The translations under genes and the position numbers were made by a program. The notes beneath the pieces are model-generated. The model was not told the origin of the DNA, searched no databases, and saw only the letters and a list, made by a program, of their open reading frames with translations. Shown piece after piece: positions 1,825 through 61,431 of a stretch of DNA of 64,000 nucleotides. The stretch comes from a virus. Taxonomy: Duplodnaviria > Heunggongvirae > Uroviricota > Caudoviricetes. The stretch is taken from IMG/VR virus record IMGVR_UViG_2859657292_000001, one strand, 5' to 3'. Positions within the stretch are counted from its first letter, which is position 1. Every line of letters starts with the position of its first letter.

Positions 1825-1904
1825 ATTGCACGCCTTTAATGATAAGTAGATACATACTTATTTTTCTGTAAGAATATGCTCGACGAAGGAATTGAGGAAC
1901 CTTT

Positions 1905-2699
1905 ATGAAAGCAGATATTCAGAAGTCCGTTACCGAAATTATCGACAAATCAGGCGTAGAAATTGATACAGAAGAGCGCCAGAAGATTATCGATGAGGCG
2001 ATCCAAACTGCGCTGGAGCACATCGCCACGTCTGTGAGCACCGCACCTCTTGGGGAAGGCTCGAAATACATGCGGGTATGGGTTCGTTTTGGAGAGTCCC
2101 CAGAGCTGCCTGGTGTTAAACAGAAACGCGCGGCATTCGTGGCGTTCACTCGCAAAATGAAGGACGCAACGGTCGAAGTACGTGCCGGTGCATGGTACGA
2201 CGGCCGCGTTGTCTACACCAATCAGGCGGTGTGTGATGAAGGTGAACGATTTGAGGAAATTGTCGACGCAACTCTTCGCGCGATCAAAGGCAGGGCTGGT
2301 GTAGAGGATGATCCGTCTATTGCGGCGTTCCTGAGCATTGTCGAACTGCCTGAAGTTACTGAACGCGTTACCGATCTGACAACACCACCTGGTTTGCTGG
2401 AATTGGTGGTCAGTGGCGATACCAAAAAAGCCGTTGAGCGCATTCGTGAGGTGGAATACGGCATCATCTGCGATATGTGCCGCAGCGACTTAGACCTGGT
2501 GCGCATCATTGTCGACGCGGGTCAGGCATGTGACGGTGTGCTCGCCAGTTTTGCAGGGCAGGTGGCACGCCTGGCCAACGAGCTGCCGATGATTAAACAG
2601 GAGGCAAAATCCTACGCCGTCCACCATGCCAACGATTTACTGGAGCCATACCGGTTCGAAGCCGCTCAGGACAAAATGACTGGCTGGGCGACCTGGTAA
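1905..2699 (+). CDS. Hypothetical protein (264 aa)
   Basis: Long ORF with an upstream RBS-like 'gaggaacctttATG'. No recognisable motif. Confidence 0.4.
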   Translation: MKADIQKSVTEIIDKSGVEIDTEERQKIIDEAIQTALEHIATSVSTAPLGEGSKYMRVWVRFGESPELPGVKQKRAAFVAFTRKMKDATVEVRAGAWYDGRVVYTNQAVCDEGERFEEIVDATLRAIKGRAGVEDDPSIAAFLSIVELPEVTERVTDLTTPPGLLELVVSGDTKKAVERIREVEYGIICDMCRSDLDLVRIIVDAGQACDGVLASFAGQVARLANELPMIKQEAKSYAVHHANDLLEPYRFEAAQDKMTGWATW

Positions 2700-2715
2700 G
2701 CCTCGAAAAACCATT

Positions 2716-2738
2716 TAGCCCCCTGGTGGGGCTTTTTT
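2716..2738 (+). terminator. Rho-independent terminator hairpin (agcccc-ctggt-ggggct) followed by a T-run
   Basis: GC stem followed by TTTTTT, immediately after the stop codon of 1905..2699. Confidence 0.5.
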
Positions 2739-2780
2739 AAACTGCGCTTAATAAGTAAGTACACGACTACGGTTAGAAGC

Positions 2781-3257
2781 ATGTCCACAAGAACAGATTT
2801 GTCGAAAATCCCGTCTATCTCCGGAAACAACGGTTATTCGCTGCGCTGTCCGGAAGTGAAGATCAACGGCCATGAGGCCCATTGCAGCTATACAGTCTGC
2901 CAGCACACCATCCTCGCCTACAAAGAGAAGCGTCTCCCGGCGACATCGTTCCAGTCCTGCGCTGCGGCCATTGCTGCTGGCAAATGCCAGGCGCTGAAGA
3001 TGATGGTCGAAGAGATCCGCAAAGGCGAACAGCTCTACTTCATCGATATGGCTGCGCTTATCAAAGAAGTGGAAGAGCAAAACGACCGCGCCAGAACGCT
3101 TACCCGGAAGCGCAACACCATGACGATTAACAGTCTGGTTAAACGCACGAAGAAAACAGAACCAGCCAAACCCGAAACCACGTCCACCGATTCACTGGCG
3201 CCCGTCACTGACGTGTACGCGGCACTCATTGAAGAAGCAACCAAAGAAAACACATGA
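2781..3257 (+). CDS. Hypothetical protein (158 aa)
   Basis: ORF track; in the same orientation as the surrounding operon. Confidence 0.35.
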   Translation: MSTRTDLSKIPSISGNNGYSLRCPEVKINGHEAHCSYTVCQHTILAYKEKRLPATSFQSCAAAIAAGKCQALKMMVEEIRKGEQLYFIDMAALIKEVEEQNDRARTLTRKRNTMTINSLVKRTKKTEPAKPETTSTDSLAPVTDVYAALIEEATKENT

Positions 3258-11199: not shown

Positions 11200-11281
11200 G
11201 GTCAGGCAGGAACTGAAAACCAAAACGCTTCGCATCGGTAAGCGTCTGTATCGGGTTGTTCACGAGACGGGAGTGCAGAAA
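11200..11281 (+). pseudogene. 3' portion of the transposon-interrupted small membrane-protein gene
   Basis: In-frame continuation of 4986..5053 once the transposon and one TSD copy are removed. It ends with a TGA that overlaps the ATG of the next gene. Confidence 0.5.
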
Positions 11282-11586
11282 TGAGCAATTTGACCTCTTT
11301 CGACTGGTGGCTGGCAACCTACCTCGTGGCGGCCGGCGTCGGATATGCCTTTTACATTGGTCAGTTAATCGTAAAGCTACTGCTGATCAGATTTGCCAGC
11401 CATAAACGCATAGACGACGGTCTGTGGCGCCTGGGTTCTCTGCTGGAGACTCACTACGGCGAACTGAAGGAGAACGAAACTATCACTATCCAAGCGAAGC
11501 GTTTTACGGCCATCATCACGAGAACGCCGGAACAGAAGGTGAGTTTGATCAAAAAGATAGCAACTGAACGAGTAACAGAAAAATAA
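11281..11586 (+). CDS. Hypothetical membrane protein (101 aa)
   Basis: Hydrophobic N-terminus; translationally coupled to the upstream gene. Confidence 0.4.
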   Translation: MSNLTSFDWWLATYLVAAGVGYAFYIGQLIVKLLLIRFASHKRIDDGLWRLGSLLETHYGELKENETITIQAKRFTAIITRTPEQKVSLIKKIATERVTEK

Positions 11587-12335
11587 GTATTTACTTACTT
11601 ATCTATTATGTATAAGGTTCATTTGTTTTCGTTGAGACGCGACTGTTTGAACGTTAAATATAACTGCAAACGAAGATACGTACCTGGCAGTAGCCTAAGA
11701 AGCCAAACACCAGCGAGGTCAGTTTCCAGCCTCGTCACCGAAATGGGACACACTGAGCGAGTGTGATTGCAGAACGCAGGATAGGGCATGTTGCACCACC
11801 CATGCCCTATTCGATGAAGTAACAGGATGGGCGGTTGGTTTTCCTCATTCCATTCCATCATCCCGGTTTCAGCCAGCTGACCGTCCATCCTGTTACGTCA
11901 TTTCCATTACTTATGTCGTTTAATCTTGGGTTAAAAGCGGCGACGTAACCCGGCTGGCTTGGTTAGCCAGCGCACAACGTTGAGGTCACTGTTTTTCTTT
12001 TAATCATACAGGTGATTCCACAGAGCTGTAGTGACTGATCAATATGTTGGGTCGAACATAAATCGGTTCAGTGGCCTCAACGTTGTGAAAGCAGGATTCT
12101 TTAACCCTCTGGTGAAATCATTGTTGCCTATGTAGCCCCTGGTTTCACAACATGGATGATTCCATACATCCAATAAGATCGAAGAATCTGGCGGCCATCA
12201 ACCGCCGAGAAGGATTCCAGATCTTCGCTCTATGTGAGCAAGCCACAAGCCTCGTCTGGCACTAACGTAAAGTGCAAGTTGCGGGAAAGTTCTTGGTTGC
12301 CTGGTTGTCCATGAACAAGTACCGCCGCGAATAAT

Positions 12336-12672: not shown

Positions 12673-12827
12673 AGCATTAACCAAGTTTCGATAACCGCGC
12701 AGCAACAGTCTTCCAAAGACTGAAACAATGAGTCTTGAATGTCTCATAAAAATGCAATTGATAAGTAATGACTTACCTATTATTTGTCGGTATAGTTCTT
12801 TCGGTGACTCACTTGAAAGGACTCAAT

Positions 12828-15567: not shown

Positions 15568-16749
15568 TTGATCATACAAAAACTTATGCCTAATATACTG
15601 TTTATGCATACAGTAAAAAGGGCTTCACTCAGTGAGTGGACGATGAAAAACACCTTTGATAAAGCACGCGCAGCAGAAAACACCTCTCGGGAAGCCATCG
15701 AGTACCTCGAACGCGCTTCCGGTTTGTCGGCAGTGTCGACCGCCAAATTCGACGGAGACATGTCGTTTTCTTCCGCCTTCATGTTATTCACTCGCTTATC
15801 TTTACTGATAACGAGGCGTCGACCTGAAATAGCCGTTCATTGTGTTTTGATACATGTAATGCCGCATATCTCTGATGTAAAGGTAAGTGATATAAGTAGG
15901 GTCTTGGTCAACCAGCTGGTGAACCCACTGATACTGGAAGGCAAGATCGTCCAGGGCAGACGCGTGTTCTCCCTGATGAAACAGTTCCTGAGCTGGTGCG
16001 CCTTTCAGGGGCTGATTGATACATCACCGTTGAATGATATATCGCTCAATAGAGTTGCCGGTGGCGCAAAGCCAGTGCCGCGCGAACGTAAGCTGACGGA
16101 CGCCGAGGTCTGGGTATTCTGGAACGTCTGGGATTACTTCAATGTGTGCGAAGGCACAAAGTGGGCGGCCAGGCTCTGTCTTGTCGCTGCCAGACGACCC
16201 GATGAAGTGCTCCGGGCCAGAAAGGATGAGTTCAACCTTCAACGTGATGTATGGAATCAAGGTACGCGAAACAAATCGGCCAGACAGCACGCGCTGCCGT
16301 TAAGCCCATTGATGCGTCAATGCGTGGAAGAGTTGTTCGAGTACGGGAAAGACAGCCAGTGGCTCGTTCCTTCGAATAAGAAGAAGGGCGTAGATACGCC
16401 AATGTCTAAGGTGGCCATTGCCCAGGCACTGAGAAGGATACTGGAACGACCTGAGTTGATGGAGGTTGAGTCATTCACCCCACGCGATCTGAGACGTACA
16501 GCGCGTAGTTATTTCCCTGCTCTGGGGATTAATCAGGAGGTGGCCCGTAAGATTATGAACCACAGTCTTGAAGGGATAGATCGCGTCTATGATCGCCACG
16601 ATTATATGGATGAGATGCGAGACGCCTTGAATAACTTCTCAACGTACATCGCATCTATCGTTAATCAAACAGACTTAGACGAGATAGACCACAAATTCAA
16701 GGGAGATCGTCTAGCCACGGAGCTTATTCGTGTAAATTTCTCACAGTGA
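15568..16749 (+). CDS. Tyrosine site-specific recombinase (integrase/resolvase family)
   Basis: C-terminal catalytic motifs '...RDLRRTARSY...HSLEGIDRVYDRHDY' (R..HxxR..Y). The true start may be the internal Met at 15643. Confidence 0.75.
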   Translation: MIIQKLMPNILFMHTVKRASLSEWTMKNTFDKARAAENTSREAIEYLERASGLSAVSTAKFDGDMSFSSAFMLFTRLSLLITRRRPEIAVHCVLIHVMPHISDVKVSDISRVLVNQLVNPLILEGKIVQGRRVFSLMKQFLSWCAFQGLIDTSPLNDISLNRVAGGAKPVPRERKLTDAEVWVFWNVWDYFNVCEGTKWAARLCLVAARRPDEVLRARKDEFNLQRDVWNQGTRNKSARQHALPLSPLMRQCVEELFEYGKDSQWLVPSNKKKGVDTPMSKVAIAQALRRILERPELMEVESFTPRDLRRTARSYFPALGINQEVARKIMNHSLEGIDRVYDRHDYMDEMRDALNNFSTYIASIVNQTDLDEIDHKFKGDRLATELIRVNFSQ

Positions 16750-17127
16750 CTTGATGGCCTCTACCACCTTTTCTGACGCACCCTGTTGACCGTCAAAACG
16801 GTTACGGAACGCTTCTAGAACGAGTTTTTCATCAGCGGAGAGAGGTGCAGTGCCCTCTTCGCGAAAAAACTCAAGCAGCTCAGGATGACGTTCTTCCAGA
16901 ACCATCAGCATCAGTCGAACCGGATCTGCCTCCAGTGCTTCGGCTAAAGCTCGAACCTTATCGACTGGAAGTGGGATTTTGCCGCTTTTGATGAGAGAGA
17001 GGTTGTTGGCGTTCTTGTACCCAACCTCTTTGGCAATGGTAGCCTGACTTTTAGGCGAGATTGTGATTAACGAGTCAATGTAAGCTGCGTAGCGACCTTG
17101 TTTGATCTCTGTTTCGTTGGTAGCCAT
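16741..17127 (-). CDS. XRE-family helix-turn-helix transcriptional regulator (Cro/CI-like)
   Basis: 'TIAKEVGYKNANNLSLIKSGKIPLP' HTH in the N-terminal half. Transcribed convergently with the recombinase gene. Confidence 0.7.
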   Translation of the reverse strand: MATNETEIKQGRYAAYIDSLITISPKSQATIAKEVGYKNANNLSLIKSGKIPLPVDKVRALAEALEADPVRLMLMVLEERHPELLEFFREEGTAPLSADEKLVLEAFRNRFDGQQGASEKVVEAIKSL

Positions 17128-17390
17128 GTAGTGAACCTTGCGTGTTTTGTTTATCTCTGGTAAGTGCTTACTGATATTACAGCAAAGGCCAGGGTTGTAA
17201 AGACTTATCTATTTAATTTCGATAGGCACAAAACCCCGGCATACCGCCATTATACTATGGTTTTTAGGCAATTTGTCACTATTCGCTTACAGAAAAAAGT
17301 AAGACGTATCTGATATAGGTGCATTCCATATTGATACAATAGGTAGTAGTATTGCCGAACTTTCAAATGTGTTCAGTTGGATGATATGAA

Positions 17391-17603
17391 ATGAAAAATA
17401 TAACTTCTAAATTGACCGCCCTTGAGGTTGGACACGCATATGCGATTGGACTAGATGGCGTCGCGACGATCCTGACAGAACTAGAATCTGAAGAGCTTCC
17501 CGTGGAGATGGTTGATACGACGGTTTTCACTTTTGAGCTAAAAAATAAACATTTCACTCTCATCAATACTGGTTGCGGCTCCCTTGCCGTGAGAACCATT
17601 TAA
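17391..17603 (+). CDS. Hypothetical protein (70 aa)
   Basis: ORF track; divergent from the XRE regulator gene. Confidence 0.3.
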   Translation: MKNITSKLTALEVGHAYAIGLDGVATILTELESEELPVEMVDTTVFTFELKNKHFTLINTGCGSLAVRTI

Positions 17604-17712: not shown

Positions 17713-20079
17713 ATGTCCAAAGCCATGACCAGATCTGTGCTGAAAGAGGTACAGGACTTTCGCGACTGCGTAAAACGAGTTGTAGCGATGCTATCAGGCA
17801 AACAGATACCTGTTGCAGAGCGAGGCAATGAAGCATATGTCCGCTACAACCGGCGCGGCGAACCAGTGCTGGTAAACATCCCATCTATACCGGACGACGC
17901 GTCACCAACCCTCATGAACGCAGTACGTGGTTTTCTCGACCATGAGGTAGCCCATATCCTCTTTACTGATCCGAAAGTCGCAATGAAGATGCGCGAGAGA
18001 GGAAAGGCTCCGTCTACCGGGCTTTGGAACGCGCTGGAAGACGTTTTTATTGAACGCAGAATGGGACAGGTATTCAACGGAACTCGTCGCAATTTGCTGG
18101 CCACACAGAACCTGGTGATCGACAAATACTTCAAGGGCAAAGTGTCAGAGGCGGTTTCAATCTGCCACGGCGACCAGCGTGAATTGTTCCTGAAATTCTT
18201 CCTTTGCCCGGTCGTTCGCGCCTGGGATGGCCAAAGCCCTTTCATCGACTTTATGGAAGAACACTGGCACCTCATCGATAAGCCTGTAGCCTTGCTCAAA
18301 GAGCATGGTATCGACGTGGCCGTTCGCAATATGTCGAACACAGAAGACTGCGTGAAGGTCGCAGCTGCTATCGCCCAAATCATGCAGGATATGAAAGACA
18401 AGCCAGAGGGCAAATTACCAGAGCTTAAATCGTCTGCTAGGAAGCCGTCGAAGAGTGAGGACGAGTCAGAGGAAACCCCAGAAGCCGGTGACGAACCGAC
18501 TCATAGTGAATCAGCACCAAAGCGTACCAAAGGCGAAGACGACGACAAGGAAGAGCAAGAAGATGATGCCTCAGAAGAGGAAGAGTCTGGGGATTCTGAT
18601 TTGCCTGAATCAGTAGATAAGGACTTACCTACAGAGGATAAAGAAATTAGTGATACAGAAAGTAAATATACAGAAGCAGGCGAAGAAGAATCAGGAGACA
18701 CCCCAGAATCCGATGATGCCGGCATGGAATCAGGTGATTCTGATGACGAAGGTGGTAGTGATGACACTGGCTCTCCAACGCCTGGTGATGGCATTCGCGA
18801 AGACGCCGATGACTCCGATGGTTATGGCTCTGGCGCCGCTGGCGATAGTGATGGTGATGACGGCGAAGACTCCGATGCCAGTCACGGGGAGTCGGAAGGA
18901 GAAGGCGAAGAGGAAGATGACGCCGCCGATCACACAGACGGCGAAGGTAAAGAAAATGAGGATGCCGCGGAAGCGCCTGAAGACAGTGAGTCAGGCTTTG
19001 TTCCTGCTCCGGATGAAATGACTCTGGAGGACGCACTCAAGGCGCTCGACGAGATGGAAGACGGAACAGGCGAAATGACCGAAGACGCACTGTCGGCCAC
19101 CATCAGCAAAGAGCTTATGAGCACCTCACTTTCTGAGTATCGCCCATACGATCGTTCATACGACTTTATCGGGTTGATTGATGAGGCTGAAGAGCATGTA
19201 AAGCGCACCAGAAAGACGTTTGGCGCAATCCCAATGCACTCACCGGTCGATCGCTACCGCATGGTTCCGGAAGGCAGAAGGCTCTTTGAACTGAAAATCG
19301 AAAAACATCTGTCAGCAGGCGTTTCTTCGACTCTGGCCAAAGACCTGGAGCGAGCTATCGCCAGCCGCAATCGAGTCCAGTTTATCCCAGGCCAGAGACG
19401 TGGACGGATACATGGCGCGAACCTGTATCGTCTGGCAATGAACGACGACCGCGTGTTCCGCAAGAAAGAAGACCACAGAGCGGTGAACGCGTGCGTCCAG
19501 CAGGTGATCGACTTGTCCGGCTCAATGGGCGGCAGGAAGATTCAACTGGCACTCGCCAGCGCCTACACCATTGCGGATGCTCTGGATCGTATCAATGTGC
19601 CTAACATCATCACCGGCTTTACCACGTTTGGTAGCCCAGATTATGAAACCATGTCGAAGCGCGGGTTTACTCGTTTCGAGGCGCTAATGCTGCCCATTAT
19701 CAAAAACTGGAATGAGAAAGCCAACTCTCCAGAGATCCGCGCCCGCATGGGCTGCGTGTGTGAGACGTTCCCCCTGCTCAATAACGTCGATGGTGAGAGC
19801 GTCGCGCAGCTGGCGACTCTGTTTGCAGGGCGAATGGAGGACAAGAAGATCATGCTGGTTATGAGCGACGGGGCGCCATGTGCTGCAGGCGATGGGTTCC
19901 ATCAGCATTTGCGAACCGTCACCAAAGAAATTGAGACGTTGAGTGACATCGATTTGATGGCTATCGGCGTTCTGACCGACGCACCACGGCGTTACTACAA
20001 AAATTACGCACTGGTAAACAGCGTAGAAGAGTTAGGGCCGTCAGTCGTCACAGAGCTATCTCGTATCATTCTTGGGTAA
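17713..20079 (+). CDS. CobT-like vWA-domain protein with a very long D/E/S-rich low-complexity linker
   Basis: C-terminal MIDAS motif 'DLSGSMGG'. About 180 aa of acidic low-complexity sequence sits at 18440..18990. The start was moved to the Met after RBS 'aaggaaattctcATG', because the listed 17644 start overlaps the palindromic motif. Confidence 0.65.
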   Translation: MSKAMTRSVLKEVQDFRDCVKRVVAMLSGKQIPVAERGNEAYVRYNRRGEPVLVNIPSIPDDASPTLMNAVRGFLDHEVAHILFTDPKVAMKMRERGKAPSTGLWNALEDVFIERRMGQVFNGTRRNLLATQNLVIDKYFKGKVSEAVSICHGDQRELFLKFFLCPVVRAWDGQSPFIDFMEEHWHLIDKPVALLKEHGIDVAVRNMSNTEDCVKVAAAIAQIMQDMKDKPEGKLPELKSSARKPSKSEDESEETPEAGDEPTHSESAPKRTKGEDDDKEEQEDDASEEEESGDSDLPESVDKDLPTEDKEISDTESKYTEAGEEESGDTPESDDAGMESGDSDDEGGSDDTGSPTPGDGIREDADDSDGYGSGAAGDSDGDDGEDSDASHGESEGEGEEEDDAADHTDGEGKENEDAAEAPEDSESGFVPAPDEMTLEDALKALDEMEDGTGEMTEDALSATISKELMSTSLSEYRPYDRSYDFIGLIDEAEEHVKRTRKTFGAIPMHSPVDRYRMVPEGRRLFELKIEKHLSAGVSSTLAKDLERAIASRNRVQFIPGQRRGRIHGANLYRLAMNDDRVFRKKEDHRAVNACVQQVIDLSGSMGGRKIQLALASAYTIADALDRINVPNIITGFTTFGSPDYETMSKRGFTRFEALMLPIIKNWNEKANSPEIRARMGCVCETFPLLNNVDGESVAQLATLFAGRMEDKKIMLVMSDGAPCAAGDGFHQHLRTVTKEIETLSDIDLMAIGVLTDAPRRYYKNYALVNSVEELGPSVVTELSRIILG

Positions 20080-21617: not shown

Positions 21618-23955
21618 CTTCTCCCTGGGAGAGTCGGCTCTAAAAGCAGAAAACGCGGTGAAAATCGCGAGAGACGCTGGCTACACCGCTGTCATTTCCG
21701 CTGACAGCATGAACATTGCCAGTGTGATCCCCCTGCAGCGTGCCGCTGGCGACGACATGGCGGTTATTTGTGGTGTTAAGCTGAATGTTGTCGACGATCC
21801 GACATACGAGCACCGCGCCCGCCTTGCGAAAGAGTCAGGGGGATGTATGGAATCATTGGTACGTGATCGCAGCTACTGCTTCACGGCACTGATAAAGAAT
21901 GAGCAAGGTTATCGCGACGTGTGCGAACTGATGACCTTAGCCAACAAGCGCGAGCAATTCTACTTTGTCCCGCGTCTGGCGCTTGACCAGCTGGCGGCCG
22001 CATATGCCAAAGGCAACATCATCCTGCTGACGTCTGACATTGGCAGTGTATTCCAGCGCCAGGACTTCGCAAAGATTATCGGGACGCTGGTCACAGCTGG
22101 AGGACGCGATAACTTCTACAGCGTGGTTTATCCGCACCCTACCCCATTCTACGACCAGATTAACGTCCGGGCGATGAAAGTGGCGAGCGCACTGAAAATA
22201 GAGCCAGTGGCGTTCTACCCCGCTTATTACGAAGCGGTCGACGACGCTGACATTAAAGACATTGCGCACATGGTTACGAACAACATCAAAATCGATCAGC
22301 CGCATCGTCTGCGTATTCCCCACCAGCGAGATAACGCCGTTAATGGTCGCCGCCATCTCCTTGAAGCGCTGAAAGCCTTCTCCGTTCGAATGGATGTGCC
22401 GGTAACAGCTGCAATGGCCTCAACAACGCAGGACACCATTATTGAAGCCTGCACATGGCGCTGGCATGAATTGCCACCAGCACTGCCCAAGATGGCAGAC
22501 GACGAGCCTGCAACGCTGATGAAGCTGGCTGTCGCGGGGCTGCGTAAGCGTCTTACTACCAAAGAGTTTGGCTACACACCACCGGCTTCTGAGCACCGTG
22601 TGTATGTTGATCGCCTGAAGTACGAAATGGACACACTGACCCGCCTGGGCTTCTGTGGTTACTTCCTGATGGTGCGCGACCTGATGAATCACAGCCGTGA
22701 AACTGGCATTCCTGTCGGGCCAGGTCGTGGTTCCTCTGCCGGTTCTCTGGTGGCGTGGTGTATAGGCATAACCAACGTCGATCCTATCCGTCACGGTCTT
22801 CTGTTTGAGCGTTTCATCAACCCTGAACGTCTCGACTTACCGGATGCGGATCTGGACTTCAGCCAGGCACGTCGTCATGAGGTGATCGAGTATCTGAATG
22901 AACGCTATGGCGAAGATTACGTTGCCGGTATTCCGAACTTCACCTATCTGGGCGCCGCTTCTGCGCTGCGTGACACTGCGCGTATTTACGGTGTCGACGC
23001 TGCGGATATGGCGGTATCCAAAGAGTTCAAGAATCTGGAAGACGATAGCCTGTCTCTGGAAGAGCTGCGCGAGCAACTGGCCAGCCTGGACAAATACGCC
23101 ACGAAATACCCGGAAGCGTTCAAAGCGGCGTGTAAGCTGCAAAGCCTGATGCGTGGTTTTGGTCGTCACGCTGCGGGGATGATCGTCGCTGGTGTTCCAT
23201 TGGTAGAGCGCACGCCCGTCGAGCTGCGTGGCAATGCTCGCTGTATTGCGTTCGATAAACGTTACTGCGAGGCGATGGGGCTGATTAAGCTGGACGTTCT
23301 CGGTCTGGCAACGCTCGATCTGCTGGATAGCGCGAAACGCTACATCAAAGAGAGTACCGGGGAAGACATCAACCTCGACGCCATTCCACTCGACGACCGC
23401 AAAGTTCTGGATGGTTTCGCAGCTGGCTACACACAGGGCGTCTTCCAGCTGGAATCTGGCCCAATGCGCAAGCTGCTTAAAGATCTGGGTAGCGGTATCG
23501 AGCCAATGAGCTTTAAAACGGTTGTCGCGACCACCGCGCTCTTCCGCCCCGGCCCCATCCAGTCAGGCATGTTGGATGACTACGTTTCTGTGGCCAAAGG
23601 CTTCATGCCACCACATTCCATTCACCCACGTCTTGAGGAAACAACCAAAGAAACTAACGGCGTTTTGCTCTACCAAGAGCAAATTATGAAAAGCTCTCGT
23701 GTACTCGCTGGATTCTCTATGGCAGAGGCTGATGCTCTGCGTTCCGCTATCGGTAAAAAGAATATGGAAAAAATGAAAACGATCGGCGGAGATTTTGTAG
23801 AACGCGCTCAAGCAGGCTGGGTGACACTGTCACTTGAAAATGGAAGCACAGTAGAAGTTCATAAAAAAGCCAAGCTGATGTGCTCTGACGGCAAGCGCAG
23901 AACCTATGACGAAGCGATACGAGACAACGCTGATATTGTTGATTTTGGAGTTTGA
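21592..23955 (+). CDS. dnaE: DNA polymerase III alpha subunit, N-terminal fragment (PHP plus polymerase core)
   Basis: PHP-domain N-terminus and the 'GPGRGSSAGSLVAWCIGITNVDPI' and 'FERFINPER' palm motifs. Ends 'GKKNMEKMKTIGGDFVERAQAG...' at the position where E. coli DnaE continues into the 'FNKSHS' region. Confidence 0.8.
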   Translation: MKALMVRTDFSLGESALKAENAVKIARDAGYTAVISADSMNIASVIPLQRAAGDDMAVICGVKLNVVDDPTYEHRARLAKESGGCMESLVRDRSYCFTALIKNEQGYRDVCELMTLANKREQFYFVPRLALDQLAAAYAKGNIILLTSDIGSVFQRQDFAKIIGTLVTAGGRDNFYSVVYPHPTPFYDQINVRAMKVASALKIEPVAFYPAYYEAVDDADIKDIAHMVTNNIKIDQPHRLRIPHQRDNAVNGRRHLLEALKAFSVRMDVPVTAAMASTTQDTIIEACTWRWHELPPALPKMADDEPATLMKLAVAGLRKRLTTKEFGYTPPASEHRVYVDRLKYEMDTLTRLGFCGYFLMVRDLMNHSRETGIPVGPGRGSSAGSLVAWCIGITNVDPIRHGLLFERFINPERLDLPDADLDFSQARRHEVIEYLNERYGEDYVAGIPNFTYLGAASALRDTARIYGVDAADMAVSKEFKNLEDDSLSLEELREQLASLDKYATKYPEAFKAACKLQSLMRGFGRHAAGMIVAGVPLVERTPVELRGNARCIAFDKRYCEAMGLIKLDVLGLATLDLLDSAKRYIKESTGEDINLDAIPLDDRKVLDGFAAGYTQGVFQLESGPMRKLLKDLGSGIEPMSFKTVVATTALFRPGPIQSGMLDDYVSVAKGFMPPHSIHPRLEETTKETNGVLLYQEQIMKSSRVLAGFSMAEADALRSAIGKKNMEKMKTIGGDFVERAQAGWVTLSLENGSTVEVHKKAKLMCSDGKRRTYDEAIRDNADIVDFGV

Positions 23956-24653
23956 CGGTGGAAGAAGTTTGGAAATCTATTCCTGAATTTGAAGGTTATT
24001 ATGAAGCATCCAGTTTGGGGCGCATTCGTTCGTTGGATGTTATCCAAACAAGCCCCAAAGGTGTCAAATGGGTAAAAAAAGGTCAAATACTTAAACCTCG
24101 TGTAATCAATGCCTTTGGACATCTGGGGGTGAAACTAAGCGTTAAGGGAATCAAATGCGACCGAACAGTTCATTATCTTGTTGCGACAGCGTTCCACGGA
24201 GAACGGCCAGAAGGCTTGCTTATTCGTCATCTTGACGGAGACCCAACAAACAATGCGCCCTGCAATCTCGCATATGGCACTCAAGTCGACAACATGGCTG
24301 ACGCCATTGCACACGATACCGTAGAGTTTGGCGAGAGGCGCTATAACGCCAAGCTGACCAACGAAGTAGTCATTGCTATTCGCATTAAAAAGTCCAAAGG
24401 CGCGCTGAACAAAGAGTTGGCGGCCGAATATGGCTTAACTGAGCTTTACATTCACCATATCGTCACCGGAAAGAAATGGGCACGAGTTGGCGGGCCGATC
24501 GCTCTTTCAAGAGCATCCAAAAAGCTGGATGCCGAAACGAGAGCTGAGGTGGTTGCATTGCGCAAGGCTGGCGCAACCTATGAAAAGCTGCGAGAAAAAT
24601 TCGGCATATCTAACACACAAATCGCAAATATCTTAAAAAAAGCAAGCATTTGA
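23952..24653 (+). CDS. HNH homing endonuclease (NUMOD4 N-terminus plus HNH plus AP2/NUMOD1-like HTH repeats)
   Basis: 'WKSIPEFEGYYEASSLGRIRS' (NUMOD4) and 'HLDGDPTNNAPCNLA' (HNH). Inserted exactly between the two dnaE fragments. Confidence 0.8.
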   Translation: MTVEEVWKSIPEFEGYYEASSLGRIRSLDVIQTSPKGVKWVKKGQILKPRVINAFGHLGVKLSVKGIKCDRTVHYLVATAFHGERPEGLLIRHLDGDPTNNAPCNLAYGTQVDNMADAIAHDTVEFGERRYNAKLTNEVVIAIRIKKSKGALNKELAAEYGLTELYIHHIVTGKKWARVGGPIALSRASKKLDAETRAEVVALRKAGATYEKLREKFGISNTQIANILKKASI

Positions 24654-24672
24654 AGTTAACGACGGGGAAAAA

Positions 24673-27795: not shown

Positions 27796-27914
27796 TTTAT
27801 GCTAGATCGTAAGTAAGTACTGATCTATCATTCTTCTCGCTCGAAAGAGCCACGAATAAACGAACGCCCAACGCGCATAGCGCCAATGGCCACAATCACA
27901 ACAAGGAGAAATAC

Positions 27915-33691: not shown

Positions 33692-33731
33692 TATTTACAG
33701 CAAAAAATGTATAAGTTAGTATCTACCTATC

Positions 33732-33911
33732 ATGAAAACTGTATTAGACACTTTATTACTTATTGTCTCGATAGCTTTTGTGCTCGATTGCATCTTCACC
33801 GGAGCAATCCGTAAGGCGCTGGCGCCTGTTAATGGCGCGATGGTTAATGCGCTGGCCGTAGTGCTAGTATTCGACTCAGCATTCGGCGTTATCAAAGGAG
33901 TCGTGGCATGA
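33732..33911 (+). CDS. Small hydrophobic protein (59 aa), unlisted in the ORF track
   Basis: MKTVLDTLLLIVSIAFVLDCIFTG...; its stop overlaps the next gene's ATG. Confidence 0.3.
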   Translation: MKTVLDTLLLIVSIAFVLDCIFTGAIRKALAPVNGAMVNALAVVLVFDSAFGVIKGVVA

Positions 33912-38581: not shown

Positions 38582-38809
38582 CGTCCGTTCTCCTTTTTCG
38601 TTTAGTTGTCATCAATGAGTGACTGCGATTATAGAGTGGCTTGTAACATTTAGAAATCTATGCCGCTTCATAAAATAGGTATTCACTTACTTATATATTT
38701 TGTCATAATCGTGTCCCCGTAGATTTTCTTCTGTGCCGTGTTGTCTGGGTTGATCGCCTCTCAAGCACGCTTAACATCTGTATCAAAATAACCACAAAGG
38801 AAAAGACAC

Positions 38810-43358: not shown

Positions 43359-43395
43359 GTCGGTAATTGATAGGTAAGTGCTTATCTATTAACAT

Positions 43396-47083: not shown

Positions 47084-47953
47084 ATGAAATTTACGAAACT
47101 GACCGATCATCTGAAACTTGCCGCAGACAAACTCGTGGGATTTAAGCCAGAGCCTTACGAGTTGAATCCTGGTTTTGGCAAGGCAACGGAAAGCATCTAC
47201 TTGATGGTTGACCAGTTCCACACACTGTTTCAGCACCCACGCCGTGCCATTCCAGATCCGGCATTACTGCGTCTGCGTGCCAAGCTGATCCACGAAGAAG
47301 CTGTTACCGAGGGCATCCCGGCAGCCAAAAATGGGGATATGACGGCGCTGCTGGACGCGATGGCGGACTTCCTTTACGTGGGCGTCGGCACAATGGTGGC
47401 CATCAAAGGCGGCATCTCTACGGGCATGAGTTACTACACCCAAGAGCAGAGTGTTGATCGCTTCATCCACACCATCATGGTTCCGGTCAACACGGTCTTT
47501 GACGATATGGCCATCCCGTTTGAAGAAGCAAAAGAAGCTGCATTAATGCTGAATGCGCTGGCTGACAAACTCGAAGCGAAGCCGATAAGCGATTCCGAAT
47601 TGGTGCAGGAGCTGCGCCGCGTGATGAACAAAATCTACGTTGCCTGCATGATGACCTACCGCCTGGCTGATTTTCTCGGTATCGATATTGTTGAGCTGGT
47701 GGCAGAAATCCACCGTTCCAACATGACCAAGCTGTGGCCGGCTGACGCCGAAGAGCGTCGTGTGGCGGTAGAGAATTGCAAATACGACAAGGAAGACCTG
47801 GGCTTCCGCCATGCTGAAGGGACTGACATGATGATTGGCTTCAGAATTTCTGATGGCAAGATCCTCAAATCCCCAACCTACAGCGATGTGGATCTGACTC
47901 GCTTTGTTGAGAAGGCAAAATCCTCATCTCTTTACGAGATGGTAAAAAAATAA
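47084..47953 (+). CDS. Putative all-alpha NTP pyrophosphohydrolase (MazG/dUTPase-like); start chosen after RBS AAGGAAAG
   Basis: Acidic-helix pattern '...IHEEAVTEG...DMTALLDAMADFLYVGVG'. Location within the nrd/thy cluster. This call is weak. Confidence 0.35.
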   Translation: MKFTKLTDHLKLAADKLVGFKPEPYELNPGFGKATESIYLMVDQFHTLFQHPRRAIPDPALLRLRAKLIHEEAVTEGIPAAKNGDMTALLDAMADFLYVGVGTMVAIKGGISTGMSYYTQEQSVDRFIHTIMVPVNTVFDDMAIPFEEAKEAALMLNALADKLEAKPISDSELVQELRRVMNKIYVACMMTYRLADFLGIDIVELVAEIHRSNMTKLWPADAEERRVAVENCKYDKEDLGFRHAEGTDMMIGFRISDGKILKSPTYSDVDLTRFVEKAKSSSLYEMVKK

Positions 47954-48027
47954 TTGTAAGTATATACTTATCATTATATATTGCCTTGGCGTGTTTTATT
48001 GTCCAAGTTCTTAATTGCTCATTGCAA

Positions 48028-48052: not shown

Positions 48053-48130
48053 TTTACTCCCCTCCTAGCCTTACACACTTCTGACAGATAAACTTGTATA
48101 AAATAATATGTATGTACTTACTTATCTTGT

Positions 48131-54790: not shown

Positions 54791-54992
54791 ACACCAGTCT
54801 GGGAGTTAGTTTGAGAACCTGCTTCCGTATATATAAATAACTAAGTACTAATTATTAATATATACAGACGCAGGCTTTTTAAGACGTGATTTCCAAACAA
54901 CTCCCAGACCGTTTTACACCTCCAGAACCCACTGGAACCCCTCTTCAGACGCTCTAGAATCGATTTTATGAACCACAGTAAGGAAAACTATC

Positions 54993-55229
54993 ATGGTATA
55001 CCCGACGAACGTCGTAGCGCTCGTTGAGAGCGATTTTCTGGCCAAAGTGCGCGACATGATGAAAGATCGCGATAAGGCTTTCAGTCTCTACGAATGGTCG
55101 CTCAAATGTCTTCATTCAGGCGAGCACAAAGAGCTGGTGGAGCAGCTGTTATGGGAACTCATCAATGAGGTGTTTGCCCTGAACGTCCAGCTTCATGGTC
55201 GAGAAAATAATCAATCGAATAATCGGTAA
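54993..55229 (+). CDS. Hypothetical protein (78 aa)
   Basis: RBS 'aaggaaaactatcATG'. Confidence 0.3.
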   Translation: MVYPTNVVALVESDFLAKVRDMMKDRDKAFSLYEWSLKCLHSGEHKELVEQLLWELINEVFALNVQLHGRENNQSNNR

Positions 55230-55815
55230 GTACTTACCATTTAAAACGCAGATCGCCAGTGATAAAATCTACCCGCTTTCCGGATTGATTCCGGCAGCTC
55301 GACCTGATGGGTGGGGGATAGCGTCACTGGCGTCAGGTTTAAAAAAGCTCACTACCAGCGTAGAACCGGCACCGTTTAGGGGTTGGGGAAGGGGGAACCA
55401 AAGTGAGCAGAGAGAAGGGTCACTTTATGATTGTCGAGTCTGGAGTGTTTCGAGAGGTTGAATCCAGTACTCCCCTTCATAAAGGGTGGGAAGATCTCGG
55501 TTCTGGGGTGCTGTCATCCATAACTTCCCAAGCCTAAGCTGGCAGTAGACTTAGGTCATAACTTTTCAGGTTATGTAACGACCAGGTTGGTGAGGAAATT
55601 TTGTACTCACCTCCCTGGGAAAGTATTACCTGAAAAGACAACCTCTCACTTCGTTCGAGGTGAACTTCACTCACTTCGTTCGTTCAGTTCAGGTTTTATT
55701 AAAACCTGTTCTGGGAAGTAAGTTTTTCTTTTCTAAAAATTTTTAATATTTACACGCACGCGTGCGCACACGCGCGAGGAAAAAAATCGTCGTGGCGCGC
55801 GATTCTGGAGCCAAA

Positions 55816-56412: not shown

Positions 56413-56565
56413 AATGATAAGTAAGTATTTACCTATCATTTTAAATCAGGTATCTTACCGTTCGTCAGGATGACGAAGTATCGGTAGGTACTGTTCCAGG
56501 ATGGAACGCCAAAAGGCGGCTGGCTTGGCCAGCCGCAACTCTTTCTGACACTGAATGGAATCCAA

Positions 56566-59298: not shown

Positions 59299-59687
59299 GT
59301 ATTACCCTTTTAGCGTTAAAAGGAGGGGGCAATGGCCTTTGTAGACTTGAGTTCCATTTGCCTGATGCCATCCTCATCAAACTTCTTCCGTTTTCCCGAA
59401 GAGGGGGGAGATTAATGTATCATTTTTAACGGGTTACACAAGAATATGACTTCTTAATCTAGGAGCTGAGCGTTCTTCAGGAAAAAAATAAGCATGAATG
59501 ACAGCGGTTGTAGCCTTAGATTTTAAGGTGGTTACGTTCTTAATTTATTGAATTACCAATTAACTTTGAACACTATCAATTTAGCGTCTCTAAGCGTCTC
59601 TACAACCCCTGTGAATACTGCTTTTACGCCTTTTCAACTTTGGGGAAATAACACCAATAAGAAAACAATTTGTTTAATAGTGTGATC

Positions 59688-61373
59688 ATGAATACAGCCC
59701 TTTCCATCATTGACGCTATCACCCCAAACACTGATATCGACTACCGGCAGGAAATGAACGTCATCCACGAAATTGTGGCCGAGTGCGAGAAAGAGATCGC
59801 ATTCATGCATCAGGTTCACGACTTCGTTTATGGCGACGAACGCCACAACATGATTAACCGCCTGCTGCGACTCAACCACCGGCCGGATGACGAGCGCACA
59901 CGCTTTAACAGAGCCTGGCTGGACAAGGTCGACCTTGAATGGGTGAAACAGAATATCTGGGCCGAGTACTGGAAGAAGGTCACGGATATGACAAACGTTC
60001 TGCTGATCATGCCAGCTTCCCGCCGCGACGAGTGGCGTGAGCAGTTTATCGAGGGCAAGCAGGAGACCATCAGGACTGACAGAACCGGCTACCAGATGAA
60101 GGTTAAGGAGTTCGTTGGTGTGCCGGAGTTCAAAGCAGAAACGGTCATCCCAACGATGCTCAATCTGCTGAATGACAGGCACAAATATCTCTCTGAGCGC
60201 GTGTATGGCTTGTTTAAAGCGCTGAGTCCTGCCCACAAGACCAATAAGACGAACGGCTTTAGCGAGCGTCTGATCATCGCCAACTGCATTTCCGAGTTCT
60301 GGCGGGACAGCGTCAGCGTGAACTACCGGAAAGAGGACTACATCGACGACCTGCGCGTCATGCTTCATTTCTTAGCACACAAAGAGTTCATCACCATCAA
60401 CCGCACAACTGAGATGCTTTCAGCTGCGTACCGGGCAAACGACTGCCAGACCGGTGACTGGATGAATGTCGACGGAAACCTGATGCGCGTGAAGATGTTC
60501 AAGAACGGCAACGTTCACTTTGAAATACATCCTGACGTGGCCTGGAAGCTGAATGAGGTGCTGGCTTACAGTATGCCTGCAGCAATCCCGGCGCCATGCC
60601 GTACTGCACCCAAAACACGGGCACCAAAAGAGTTCGGGTTAATCCAGAAGACGATCTCCGAGCCGGTTCGTACTGCGCTGCGCGACGGGCGATTCAGCAA
60701 AGACAAAGGCGTCTGGTACTTCTCTGATTCCAACCTACAGAAGTCACAGGTGGAAGAGCTTGAGCGCACACTGAACTTCATTGGCGGCGTGCAGGAGAAA
60801 AAGCACTGGCAGTTCCCGTATGAGATCGGCCATACGCTCAATACGATTGTGGCCACCGGCTTAATACCGGATACAAAATCACACCAGTTCTACCCTACCC
60901 CACGTTTGATAGCGGAGTACGTTGCCAGAGCCATCGAGCTGAAGCCAGGTGAGAAGCTGCTGGAGCCTGAAGCCGGGCGCGGAGATCTGCTGGCCTGCAT
61001 CGACGCCAATCCGGAAGACGTTACCTGCATAGAAGTCGCACCTCTCTTCGCTGATATCCTGCTTGGCAAGGGGTACACAAATACGGTCTGCTGCGACTTC
61101 ATGAAGTGGTCTGAGGACAACGCAGGTTATCAGTTCGACAAAATCGTCATGAACCCGCCCTACTCTCTTGGCCGTCACAGAGAGCATACGCTGGCCGCGC
61201 TGGAGCATCTTAAAGTCGGCGGGCGACTGGTGGCTGTACTGCCGGGTGATGCGCCAGTTCTGAACTGGGTGTCGCTGGATAATTACGTTTATGCCAAAGG
61301 GAAGTCGTTTACTGACGAGTTTGAAGACACCGGAATCACTGTCAGCGTATACGTTTTCAAACGTGTAAAATGA
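59688..61373 (+). CDS. DNA methyltransferase (NPPY class) with a long N-terminal accessory domain
   Basis: 'KIVMNPPYSLGRH' near the C-terminus and an SAM-binding-like 'LLEPEAGRGDL'. The start was taken at the second Met, because the AAACAATTTGTTT motif overlaps the listed 59670 start. Confidence 0.6.
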   Translation: MNTALSIIDAITPNTDIDYRQEMNVIHEIVAECEKEIAFMHQVHDFVYGDERHNMINRLLRLNHRPDDERTRFNRAWLDKVDLEWVKQNIWAEYWKKVTDMTNVLLIMPASRRDEWREQFIEGKQETIRTDRTGYQMKVKEFVGVPEFKAETVIPTMLNLLNDRHKYLSERVYGLFKALSPAHKTNKTNGFSERLIIANCISEFWRDSVSVNYRKEDYIDDLRVMLHFLAHKEFITINRTTEMLSAAYRANDCQTGDWMNVDGNLMRVKMFKNGNVHFEIHPDVAWKLNEVLAYSMPAAIPAPCRTAPKTRAPKEFGLIQKTISEPVRTALRDGRFSKDKGVWYFSDSNLQKSQVEELERTLNFIGGVQEKKHWQFPYEIGHTLNTIVATGLIPDTKSHQFYPTPRLIAEYVARAIELKPGEKLLEPEAGRGDLLACIDANPEDVTCIEVAPLFADILLGKGYTNTVCCDFMKWSEDNAGYQFDKIVMNPPYSLGRHREHTLAALEHLKVGGRLVAVLPGDAPVLNWVSLDNYVYAKGKSFTDEFEDTGITVSVYVFKRVK

Positions 61374-61431
61374 TAGGTAAATGCTTACCTAATTTATGTA
61401 AGAATAGAGCCACTTTATCAGAGGTAAACAC

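Follow-up and report, generated by a model that had tools for sequence, protein, structure and literature searches.

Palindromic sites in an SSU5-like phage-plasmid

The window, that is, the whole stretch of 64,000 nucleotides that was analysed, belongs to an SSU5-like phage-plasmid and is 100% identical to the Enterobacter plasmid CP027605.1, which has a full size of 118 kb and carries blaTEM-1 on a Tn3 family element. SSU5-like phage-plasmids are frequent in clinical Enterobacterales, with resistance genes aboard.

A family of recurrent palindromes had been noticed at 19 places in the first-pass annotation of this DNA, and all 19 were confirmed as members of one motif family. Scored with a symmetrised 20-bp PWM, they reached 11.8-28.8 bits, and the weak members among them were those at 2751 (11.8 bits), 54833 (14.4 bits) and 17156 (15.3 bits). 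The places were right, but several coordinates were shifted by 1-8 bases (48098..48120 becomes 48106..48125, and 33387..33399 becomes 33383..33402), and the description of at least 19 copies, all intergenic, had missed a copy inside a cobT-like gene. The sites in the window are as follows.

1842..1861, site ATAAGTAGATACATACTTAT, with the primase gene on one side and 1905..2699 on the other; 23.0 bits; orthologues at SSU5 38178 and Cyrano 34730
2751..2770, weak site, left half alone intact (ATAAGTAAGTACACGACTAC), directly 3' of a terminator-like hairpin; 11.8 bits; 4/10 arm pairs complementary; SSU5 orthologue at 39087
11583..11602, site ATAAGTATTTACTTACTTAT, at the stop codon of 11281..11586, with a tRNA-Asn region downstream; 26.1 bits; orthologues at SSU5 41773 and Cyrano 38252
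12761..12780, site ATAAGTAATGACTTACCTAT, 5' of phoH, the annotated phoH start (12768) lying within it; 24.0 bits
17156..17175, weak core-only copy GGTAAGTGCTTAC, overlapping +1 of the predicted XRE promoter; 15.3 bits
17193..17212, faint and doubtful second copy, overlapping the -35 of the XRE promoter; 6.6 bits only
18613..18632, intragenic copy in the cobT-like gene; 17.9 bits; SSU5 orthologue at 43661 with 20.8 bits
20097..20116, site between cobT-like and cobS-like genes; 17.1 bits; orthologues at SSU5 45124 and Cyrano 45280
27809..27828, site 5' of the gp32-like SSB gene (27915); 20.6 bits; orthologues at SSU5 52175 and Cyrano 52659
31333..31352, site 3' of a terminator, the sole copy within a full sigma-70-like promoter (TTGAAA-17-TATCAT, promoter scan); 25.5 bits
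33383..33402, site adjoining the ribosome-binding site of 33416..33691, 13 nt from the ATG; 22.9 bits; present in SSU5, none above threshold in Cyrano
33711..33730, site 1 nt from the annotated ATG of 33732..33911; 20.5 bits; orthologues in SSU5 and Cyrano
38675..38694, site 5' of an sbcD-like gene; 23.9 bits; orthologues at SSU5 63080 and Cyrano 63199
43370..43389, site followed by a terminator-like hairpin and then nrdA; 25.9 bits; orthologues in SSU5 and Cyrano
47952..47971, site at the stop codon of 47084..47953, with a terminator downstream; 18.1 bits
48106..48125, site 3' of the terminator that follows the 47952 site, 5 nt from the annotated thyX start; 26.2 bits
54165..54184, near-perfect palindrome ATAGGTAAGTATTTACCTAT, the start of a dam-like methylase gene lying 12 nt on; 28.8 bits; 9/10 arm pairs complementary
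54833..54852, weak copy; 14.4 bits; orthologues likewise weak
55222..55241, site GGTAAGTACTTACC with a perfect core, an exact match to GTAAG-N2-6-CTTAC; 22.1 bits
56417..56436, best copy, within the 26-bp palindrome ATGATAAGTAAGTATTTACCTATCAT (56414..56439); 28.7 bits
61373..61392, site at the stop codon of a DUF4942 methylase gene, with the next gene 39 nt on; 23.2 bits

Sequence and distribution of the motif

The motif unit is a 20-bp imperfect palindrome, ATAAGTAAGT followed by ACTTACYTAT, in which G5, T6 and A7 and T14, A15 and C16 are near-invariant, and its information content is confined to these 20 bp and a weak symmetric extension to 26 bp. The core proposed earlier, GTAAG-N2-6-CTTAC, occurs exactly at only three places, one of them intragenic. 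The TATCAT at the end of the right arm, which had been read as -10-like, is the mirror image of the ATGATA at the left end and hence part of the palindrome. The flanks are symmetric (left ATG/AAA mirrors right CAT/TTT), with counts of A-rich left versus T-rich right flanks of 13 and 11, 15 and 9, and 8 and 9 in three genomes, and the palindrome, being two-fold symmetric and non-directional, carries no orientation signal.

The 20-mer consensus with up to three mismatches was found seven times, against 0.00 expected from 100 dinucleotide-preserving shuffles. Relative to shuffled intergenic sequence, the comparison named in the first-pass annotation, the motif was likewise enriched, with 14-15 intergenic matches observed against 0.02-0.2 when each intergenic segment was shuffled with its mononucleotide composition kept. 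Of the 20 window matches that score at least 12 bits, 17 are intergenic, the non-coding share of the window being just 12.6%, and across the whole plasmid 25 of 28 sites lie in non-coding DNA (19.7% by annotation; binomial P=4e-15). Nine further copies are located in the structural and tail region of CP027605, outside the window. Sites are found both before and after terminators, and their distance to start codons ranges from 1 to about 130 nt or more, the earlier figure of 10-70 bp being true of about half of them.

Conservation of the sites among related elements

The motif was compared in CP027605, SSU5, Cyrano, Acinetobacter pAYP-A2, Sinorhizobium pLM21S1, Rhizobium phage RHph_N1_10 and the lytic BUCTxx99. 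The number of copies per genome was 28 in CP027605, 26-27 in SSU5, 24-27 in Cyrano, at least 22 in pAYP-A2, 38 in pLM21S1 and 40 in RHph_N1_10. Between the window and Cyrano, the sites are 86% identical and their flanks 67-70%, and for 17 of the 19 window sites Cyrano has an orthologue. The same syntenic positions are occupied in SSU5, Cyrano, pAYP-A2, pLM21S1 and RHph_N1_10, with small sequence shifts between lineages, and they are also kept in L040; the shared places include the terminase-portal junction, the positions before and after the capsid gene, the position before the major tail gene and the junction of tail genes M and L. The proteins of the relatives sharing these positions are only 27-57% identical and their G+C ranges from 41% to 63%. 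Judged from these genome comparisons, the palindromic sites are under selection.

The sister host genera Sinorhizobium (pLM21S1) and Rhizobium (RHph_N1_10) have different motif variants, and GTAG replaces GTAA within an enterobacterial-like subclade (G+C 47-49%; hosts not identified), indicating that the binding factor is probably phage-encoded and not host-encoded. A conserved promoter-like element precedes at least 10 of the pLM21S1 palindromes, at a distance of 0, 3 or 7 nt, an arrangement that shows the palindrome, at the predicted transcription start, to be separate from the promoter-like element.

SSU5, which is described as virulent (PMC5427195), has neither the XRE gene nor an integrase and retains all palindromic sites. 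In BUCTxx99, a strictly lytic relative, no motif, no repeated 11-mers and no XRE homologue were found, though both ParB_N proteins, the helicase and a set of 29 core proteins are retained. XRE homologues in the phage collection were confined to SSU5-like and RHph-like phages, and the presence of the motif tracks that of an XRE homologue across five lineages. When the CP027605 proteins were filtered for occurrence in all three distant genomes with the motif and for absence from BUCTxx99, just four remained: the XRE protein, a ParA-like ATPase, a structural protein and a mobile HNH endonuclease. The XRE protein is the only transcription-factor-like protein matching the presence/absence pattern of the motif.

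The XRE-family protein and its promoter

The candidate repressor and its predicted promoter lie on the minus strand.

16741..17127, minus strand, XRE-family HTH protein of 128 aa, candidate repressor (AVO85390.1), with a weak HTH_31 match and assignment to PHROG 8 'transcriptional regulator'
17174..17201, minus strand, predicted sigma-70 promoter of the XRE gene (TTTACA-16-TAATAT, consensus scan)

The match to Pfam HTH_31 scored 18.1 bits, under the 27-bit cut-off, and that to PHROG 8 had E=1.8e-11. The AF2 model comprises a five-helix HTH (helices at 12-80, recognition helix 41-47) and a helical C-terminal part, and a Foldseek search with it gave weak matches to Stl, C.AhdI, ClgR and lambda cI, with E of 6e-3 or higher. 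The protein is 66-67% identical to CYRAN_45 of Cyrano, which was named 'putative repressor' and is expressed in the LF82 lysogen (PMC9928086). Expression of CYRAN_45 in a lysogen, together with SSU5 being lytic yet site-bearing, fits the lifestyle expected of an XRE repressor.

The first-pass annotation had placed a motif copy in the upstream region of the XRE gene itself, and such a copy is present at 17156..17175, a weak one at +1 of the predicted promoter, conserved in Cyrano within a 75-bp conserved block. Among 80 IMG/VR loci retrieved, the promoter and the weak +1 copy were found in all nine enterobacterial-type loci displayed (9/9), with a 17-nt spacer by eye. A copy at the XRE promoter or upstream of the gene occurs in every clade and always scores below the consensus, with about 15 bits against 20-29 in the enterobacterial genomes, 17.7-19.8 against 26-29 in the Rhizobium phages, 16.8 in pLM21S1 and 14.8 in pAYP-A2. 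Autoregulation of the XRE gene through this weak copy in its own promoter thus looks conserved. Two observations speak against the XRE protein as the repressor. In the gap between the XRE gene and the divergent gene at 17391 of the window, no strong copy lies over any obvious rightward early promoter, and the XRE gene of the Rhizobium and Sinorhizobium members has the same orientation as the lytic genes.

Variation in the protein was compared with variation in the motif. The recognition helix LSLIK pairs with GTAA and LSNIK with GTAG (G at position 8 in 16/20 half-sites), and the turn residues K-N or N go with the GTAAG core and T-Q with a relaxed core. A counter-example is the pair pLM21S1 and RHph, with almost identical recognition helices (NMITMLK and NMVTMIK, respectively) and different motifs. 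The link between the XRE protein and the motif is probable from co-occurrence, position and two or three covariation events, the last being confounded with phylogeny.

Proposed mechanism and alternative explanations

The palindromes are probably dispersed operators of one phage-encoded dimeric DNA-binding protein, the 128-aa XRE protein being the most likely candidate. In the plasmid-prophage state, it would occupy about 28 sites at the boundaries of lytic genes for replication, nucleotide metabolism, head and tail, and would silence them by sitting on or beside promoters and transcription starts, or as a block to read-through RNA polymerase. The weaker core-only copy at +1 of the XRE promoter would limit XRE synthesis. 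We infer that the XRE protein is the binder, that binding represses and that the copies outside promoters are roadblocks. Of the two halves of the earlier proposal, a promoter or operator consensus for a single regulator, the operator half is supported by the symmetry, the syntenic conservation, the co-occurrence with XRE and the copy at the XRE promoter. As counterpoints to the XRE model, 20-26 bp is a long site for one XRE dimer, copies just 5' of terminators (those that follow the capsid gene, 43370 and 47952) have no obvious role, and the ParA-like ATPase matches the XRE protein in phyletic pattern, so that some partner in plasmid lifestyle could bind.

The promoter half, in which the palindrome would be part of a phage-specific promoter or an activator site needed for lytic-gene transcription, is unlikely. 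Sites do precede many genes, often right after terminators (2751, 31333, 33383, 48106 and 54165), their A/T-rich flanks resemble a -10 element, site 31333 lies within TTGAAA-17-TATCAT, and a promoter-like element adjoins many pLM21S1 copies. However, the spacing to that element varies (0, 3 or 7 nt), no -35/-10 was found at a constant offset from the palindromes, and the flanks are symmetric, not directional. A consensus scan found 12 sigma-70-like promoters in 19 kb against 16.3 in shuffles, and the only ones touching a palindrome were 31327-31355, 33694-33722 and the XRE promoter, that is, an overlap at 2-3 sites. Some copies lie 1-13 nt from start codons and others directly 5' of terminators. 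Furthermore, BUCTxx99 is lytic and expresses the orthologous gene set without the motif, SSU5 grows lytically without XRE, and the sigma factor of the distant relatives has no homologue detectable by tblastn in the SSU5-like plasmid. Another explanation is binding by a plasmid-maintenance protein with segregation and/or silencing by spreading as its function, the candidates being the protein that partners the ParA-like ATPase and a ParB_N protein with a KorB-like action or a dispersed centromere. It would agree with the ParA-like ATPase sharing the phyletic pattern of the motif, SSU5 included, and with two conserved ParB_N proteins whose divergent promoter region holds a weak copy; KorB on RK2 and the N15 centromeres are known cases of palindromic sites that are dispersed. 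We nevertheless give this explanation a low probability, since both ParB_N proteins are present in the motif-less BUCTxx99 and the region 5' of parA, the expected place of a centromere or operator, has no copy in either CP027605 or RHph. The ParA partner is a 119-aa protein without a Pfam match in the enterobacterial genomes and a ParG-like RHH protein in RHph, and the lack of detected similarity between clades fits poorly with a near-invariant motif core.

A hairpin function at the RNA or single-strand level (in termination, processing or mRNA stabilisation, or as a translational operator by the ribosome-binding site) could account for the many copies adjoining Shine-Dalgarno sequences and for RHph 14755, 87490 and 90972, which lie in longer GC-rich inverted repeats or before T runs, but it is very improbable and is contradicted by the covariation test. 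No compensatory changes were found, the halves of the palindrome vary independently, and Watson-Crick arm pairs numbered 197 in CP027605 and 283 in RHph_N1_10 against 197.5 and 291.9 expected under independence. In RHph_N1_10, about half of the sites have mismatches at positions 3/18, 5/16 and 7/14, and A:C mismatches in the arms are as frequent as G:T on the transcribed strand; the conserved feature is the sequence rather than the pairing. Intergenic DNA is somewhat AT-rich (56% A+T), which would be a point for a chance product of such DNA or a mobile short repeat (REP- or MITE-like), an explanation of negligible probability. It is refuted by the shuffle controls (0-0.2 matches against 14-15 observed) and by the syntenic conservation, with 17/19 sites shared with Cyrano and orthologous positions kept at 27-57% protein identity, and the AT-rich accessory genes of the window contain no strong copy.

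With the XRE protein as the repressor, the operator and its candidate binder would define a regulon of about 28 sites and account simply for the lytic growth of SSU5, and they offer an experimental handle on immunity and induction; the motif provides a sequence signature for detecting a wider supergroup from Acinetobacter to Rhizobium. More tentatively, and as a possibility we rate below even chances, the XRE protein and the palindrome may form an ancient immunity system of a supergroup of ~110-kb phage-plasmids in Enterobacterales, Acinetobacter and Rhizobiaceae, in which the core GTAAG..CTTAC stayed almost constant over 41-63% G+C, most copies are symmetric roadblocks at gene boundaries, cross-immunity exists, and SSU5 is an escapee. 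If so, conserved specificity would let a resident element confer cross-immunity to, or incompatibility with, phage-plasmids of other genera, and lytic phages of the SSU5 type would be simple repressor-deletion escapees.

Comparison with known dispersed-operator systems

In the literature searched, no description of this palindrome-repressor system was found. The CIRs of phage phiC31 reportedly are palindromic operators tied to repressor autoregulation, with well-conserved intergenic copies throughout the genome, and the palindromes described here are similarly present at the repressor gene and in many intergenic regions (25/28 non-coding). The CIRs are ~17 bp long and belong to a Streptomyces phage whose repressor has several isoforms; they differ from the present sites in size, host and repressor. 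P1 is a plasmid prophage in which the master repressor C1 controls many operons through operators scattered over a ~100-kb genome, and it shares with the present element the dispersed operators for many separate operons. The P1 operators are asymmetric 17-mers, C1 is not of the XRE type, and control of the late structural genes is indirect, by way of Lpa-dependent late promoters; the comparison with P1 showed no sequence relation. KorA and KorB of RK2 act on short palindromic operators, 7-12 repeats around the plasmid, and both systems have repeated palindromes at variable distances from promoters. KorB differs in being a ParB-family protein, and here the ParB_N proteins do not track the distribution of the motif.

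The stoperators and operators of the Cluster A mycobacteriophage repressor (L5 gp71, Bxb1 gp69) likewise occur in tens of copies genome-wide, mostly in short intergenic gaps by starts and stops (PMC6550527). In both cases only some copies lie in promoters, one copy is upstream of the repressor gene, and the motif drifts with the repressor between lineages, and many Cluster A members are also extrachromosomal (parABS) prophages. The natural lytic Cluster A derivatives D29 and MissWhite have lost the repressor by deletion and kept the sites (PMC6550527), and SSU5, lytic without XRE but with sites, parallels them. Stoperators differ in being 13-14 bp long, without dyad symmetry and oriented with transcription (PMC6550527), whereas the sites here are 20-26 bp palindromes without orientation, and the hosts here are Proteobacteria. 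In the present case, binding and roadblock action are only proposed; if the proposal is true, the roadblock palindromes would be a Gram-negative counterpart of the mycobacteriophage stoperators, and the case would join the few dispersed-operator immunity systems known so far as a palindromic example from Proteobacteria.

The palindrome in the window and the whole plasmid

The window corresponds, with 100% identity, to positions 14295-78294 of CP027605.1, a 118,226-bp IncFIB plasmid from a strain of the Enterobacter cloacae complex. Since its cobT-dnaE region is ~95% identical to Salmonella phage SSU5, the window is the half of an SSU5-like phage-plasmid that serves replication and nucleotide metabolism. 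Nearly all of its backbone genes are on the + strand, and a Tn3-family transposon inserted at ~5.0-11.1 kb splits the backbone between 4986 and 11281. Just beyond the window edge is a second Tn3 element, which carries blaTEM-1. The main features of the window are listed below.

Features of the window
~5000-11100: foreign insert with recombinase, transposase fragment, nucleotidyltransferase/DUF86 pair and Tn3-family transposase; zero palindrome copies inside
12336-12410: tRNA-Asn (GTT), in a 1.1-kb stretch without plasmid annotation, bounded by the palindromes at 11583 and 12761; SSU5 and its relative Cyrano have tRNAs at the same place
16741..17127 (-): XRE-family HTH protein (XRE), 128 aa
21592..23955 and 24673..25842: the two parts of dnaE, equivalent to the single 1172-aa DNA polymerase of SSU5; the second part is annotated 'uracil-DNA glycosylase'
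23952..24653: HNH/NUMOD4-like endonuclease gene between the dnaE halves (21592-25842), an arrangement also found in Acinetobacter plasmid pAYP-A2
26314-27339, 51852-52967 and 57229-59298 (-): AT-rich accessory genes (DUF4365, DUF697, 'HypX') that break the + strand backbone

When the 19 sites listed in the first-pass annotation were aligned on their centres, a 20-bp imperfect palindrome was obtained (left half ATAAGTAAGT, right half ACTTACYTAT), with near-invariant positions G5 T6 A7 and T14 A15 C16 and a weak symmetric extension, ATGATA...TATCAT, to a total of 26 bp. All 19 sites scored 11.8-28.8 bits with the position weight matrix (PWM), indicating that they are indeed one motif family. The core GTAAG-N2-6-CTTAC, by which the family had been defined, has exact matches at only 3 places, and the 20-bp PWM was used in its place; an iterated 26-bp PWM at low threshold drifted to generic AT-rich sequence and was discarded. 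The listed sites are real, with those at 2751, 54833 and 17156 being weak, and one copy at 18613, inside the cobT-like gene, had been missed. The distance from site to next start codon ranges from 1 to >100 nt, whereas mostly 10-70 bp was given earlier.

Motif counts were compared with dinucleotide-preserving shuffles and with shuffles within each intergenic segment. With up to three mismatches, the 20-mer consensus had 7 matches versus 0.00 in the dinucleotide-preserving shuffles, and the enrichment over shuffled intergenic DNA proposed as a check was confirmed, with 14-15 matches observed versus 0.02-0.2 in the within-segment shuffles. In the window, 17 of the 20 matches of at least 12 bits are intergenic, the non-coding share being 12.6%; across the plasmid as a whole, the non-coding 19.7% contains 25 of the 28 sites (P=4e-15). 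Nine more copies were observed outside the window, among the terminase, portal, capsid and tail genes. That the family arose by chance or as a mobile repeat has a negligible probability. Strong copies were absent from the AT-rich minus-strand accessory genes, which argues for the specificity of the motif.

The annotated phoH start (12768) lies inside the palindrome at 12761-12780 and is probably an annotation error, a better-looking start being an ATG that lies ~48 nt past the palindrome and has a ribosome-binding site. The CDS at 2748..3080 (-), which overlaps site 2751 and competes with an ORF at 2781..3257 (+), is probably also an annotation error.

Conservation of the palindrome among related elements

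Copies at orthologous places number 26-27 in SSU5 and 24-27 in Cyrano (~80% nucleotide identity); a comparison of the window with Cyrano gives 86% identity for the sites and 67-70% for the 40-bp flanks. A motif scan of IMG/VR returned 115 loci, mostly SSU5-like; some of them are GC-rich contigs (58-63% G+C) that have this palindrome in matching syntenic places even though their proteins are only 27-57% identical. Among the distant motif bearers, the Sinorhizobium plasmid-prophage pLM21S1 has 38 copies (nTAAGTAA[G/T][T/C]), pAYP-A2 at least 22 (left half ATTAGTAAGC, right half GCTTACTAAT), and Rhizobium phage RHph_N1_10 40 (left half GT[C/A]A[G/A]T[C/A]AAT, right half beginning ATT), of which 38 are in the non-coding 9% of the genome. 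T2, A4, T6 and A8 are common to the motifs of all lineages.

The sister host genera Rhizobium and Sinorhizobium have different motif variants, and an enterobacterial-like subclade, whose hosts were not identified, has GTAG in place of GTAA; therefore, the protein that reads the palindrome is encoded by the element and not by the host. The motif is found together with partition and replication genes. In the strictly lytic Stenotrophomonas phage BUCTxx99, which has synteny and 29 core proteins in common, including both ParB_N proteins and the helicase, zero copies of any motif variant and zero repeated 11-mers were found.

Operator, promoter or RNA element

The first-pass annotation had proposed a promoter or operator consensus for a single regulator; the operator part is favoured here, and the palindrome itself is unlikely to be an activator site or promoter element. 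Information content ends at the palindrome edges and nothing is conserved at -35. The left and right flanks are mirror images, so the TATCAT at the right arm, previously taken as -10-like, is the outer part of the palindrome. Sigma-70-like promoters were not enriched (12 versus 16.3 in shuffles), overlapping copies only at 31333 (TTGAAA-17-TATCAT), 33711 and the XRE gene; thus, neither information content nor the consensus scan supports an in-register sigma-70 promoter. Several copies (33711, 48106, 54165 and 33383) are only 1-13 nt before a start codon, and those at 43370 and 47952 and the post-capsid copies of CP027605 and RHph_N1_10 lie directly upstream of a terminator-like hairpin, a placement that the operator model does not explain. 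An RNA or single-strand hairpin is still more improbable than a promoter, and this reading, together with a terminator or translational operator, was rejected since the arms do not covary. Complementary arm pairs numbered 197 versus 197.5 expected under independence in the 28 CP027605 sites and 283 versus 291.9 in the 40 RHph_N1_10 sites; positions 3/18, 5/16 and 7/14 of the latter each switch between two bases without compensation, and A:C mismatches are as frequent as G:T. Conservation lies in the two half-site sequences, while the arms vary independently, the signature of a dimeric protein on double-stranded DNA.

At RHph_N1_10 14755, 87490 and 90972, the palindrome forms part of an extended GC-rich inverted repeat. 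With the T run that comes after it, the repeat at 90972 resembles a terminator whose upper stem is the palindrome. The operator model leaves this unexplained.

In pLM21S1, a conserved promoter-like element, cTCCaa-N12-GCGCTATAA(A/C), directly precedes at least 10 palindromes with a gap of 0, 3 or 7 nt. This puts the operator at the transcription start, which is why copies often abut ribosome-binding sites, and marks the promoter and the palindrome as distinct elements. Another palindrome family, AAAACAAATTGTTT(A/T)A, is also intergenic; its core has 8 exact copies across the plasmid and, with at most one mismatch, 8 window matches versus 1.5 expected. Copies precede cobT, nrdB, the DUF4942 methylase gene and further genes without the main motif by 20-45 nt, and several copies themselves follow 'aacaccaataaga' or a terminator. 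This family may be a second operator or promoter element.

Positions of the additional elements
pLM21S1 promoter-like element (record positions, early/middle region): 12416, 21799, 26421, 36725, 43586, 51290, 52926; also 17411, 29771, 32635
Second palindrome family (window): 17681-17691, 45816-45826, 59665-59675, 62799-62809
Second palindrome family (CP027605.1): 8471, 79116, 79430, 79861

Candidate binding protein

Of the CP027605 proteins, only four are shared by all three distant motif-bearing genomes yet missing from BUCTxx99, namely XRE, a ParA-like ATPase, the mobile HNH endonuclease in dnaE and one structural protein. XRE homologues occur only in SSU5-like and RHph-like phages of the phage collection, and most of those in the large protein database are on contigs about 100-116 kb long; searches of genome and viral contigs returned only close relatives. 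In every clade, the XRE gene neighbours cobT/cobS. In the window, a core-only copy, GGTAAGyACTTACC, stands at +1 of the gene's predicted promoter (TTTACA-16-TAATAT), in agreement with the upstream copy reported earlier. The same architecture, with a 17-nt spacer by eye, was seen in 9 of 9 enterobacterial-type loci inspected out of 80 fetched, and a sub-consensus copy is also upstream of the gene in the other three clades. Such a weak copy is what would be predicted of a low-affinity autoregulatory operator. The XRE recognition helix co-varies modestly with the motif, and the AF2 model, a five-helix HTH with a helical C-terminal part, weakly resembles Stl, C-proteins, ClgR and lambda cI.

Several observations count against XRE: the covariation comprises few events confounded with phylogeny, the recognition helices of pLM21S1 and RHph_N1_10 are near-identical while their motifs differ, the palindrome is long for one XRE dimer, and no strong copy covers an obvious rightward early promoter beside XRE. 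A different protein of the plasmid lifestyle (for instance, a ParA partner or a KorB-like ParB) is an unlikely alternative. The ParB_N proteins were rejected by phyletic profile, being present in BUCTxx99, which lacks the motif; for a ParA partner or a centromere, no copies are upstream of parA, and no similarity was detected between the partners of the clades. A phage sigma factor was rejected as well, since RHph_N1_10, pLM21S1 and pAYP-A2 encode a sigma-70-family protein (gene between cobS and dnaE) for which tblastn detected no homologue in the SSU5-like plasmid. A Cro-like role for the 70-aa protein encoded divergently from XRE (17391..17603) was dismissed, as this protein is not similar to its syntenic Rhizobium counterpart and lacks a DNA-binding signature. 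The other 'transcriptional regulator', at CP027605.1 87065-87592 outside the window, is a full-length FljA-like phase-1 flagellin repressor (Pfam Flag1_repress, E=4.5e-97), likely a host-manipulating accessory gene, and was rejected as palindrome reader.

Proposed role and comparison with known systems

XRE is the probable binder of the palindromes and would silence lytic genes in the plasmid-prophage state. As a dimer or dimer of dimers, it would act at many points, occluding promoters or transcription starts at some sites and serving as a roadblock at others, and would limit its own synthesis via the weak copy at its own promoter. CYRAN_45, the Cyrano XRE orthologue, is called a 'putative repressor' and belongs to the small set of genes that the LF82 lysogen expresses (PMC9928086). 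Cyrano induction by genotoxic stress has been reported. A LexA-box-like sequence, CTGTTTATGCATACAG, lies at 15598-15613, 30 nt upstream of the integrase gene; with one window match versus 0.92 expected, it is at chance level and only a hint of an induction signal. SSU5 has been described as virulent (PMC5427195). SSU5 is without XRE and integrase and has kept every palindrome site, similar to the lytic Cluster A mycobacteriophages D29 and MissWhite, which are without a repressor (PMC6550527).

No description of the motif was found in the papers searched, and the palindrome system is of interest to phage-plasmid research and directly testable. The conserved inverted repeats of phiC31 are closest to it in form, and the dispersed C1 operators of P1 and the KorA/KorB regulons of RK2 also resemble the network. 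By analogy, the palindromes may work like the stoperator/operator network of Cluster A mycobacteriophages, but they do not belong to the stoperator family, because stoperators are 13-14 bp, asymmetric and oriented (PMC6550527).
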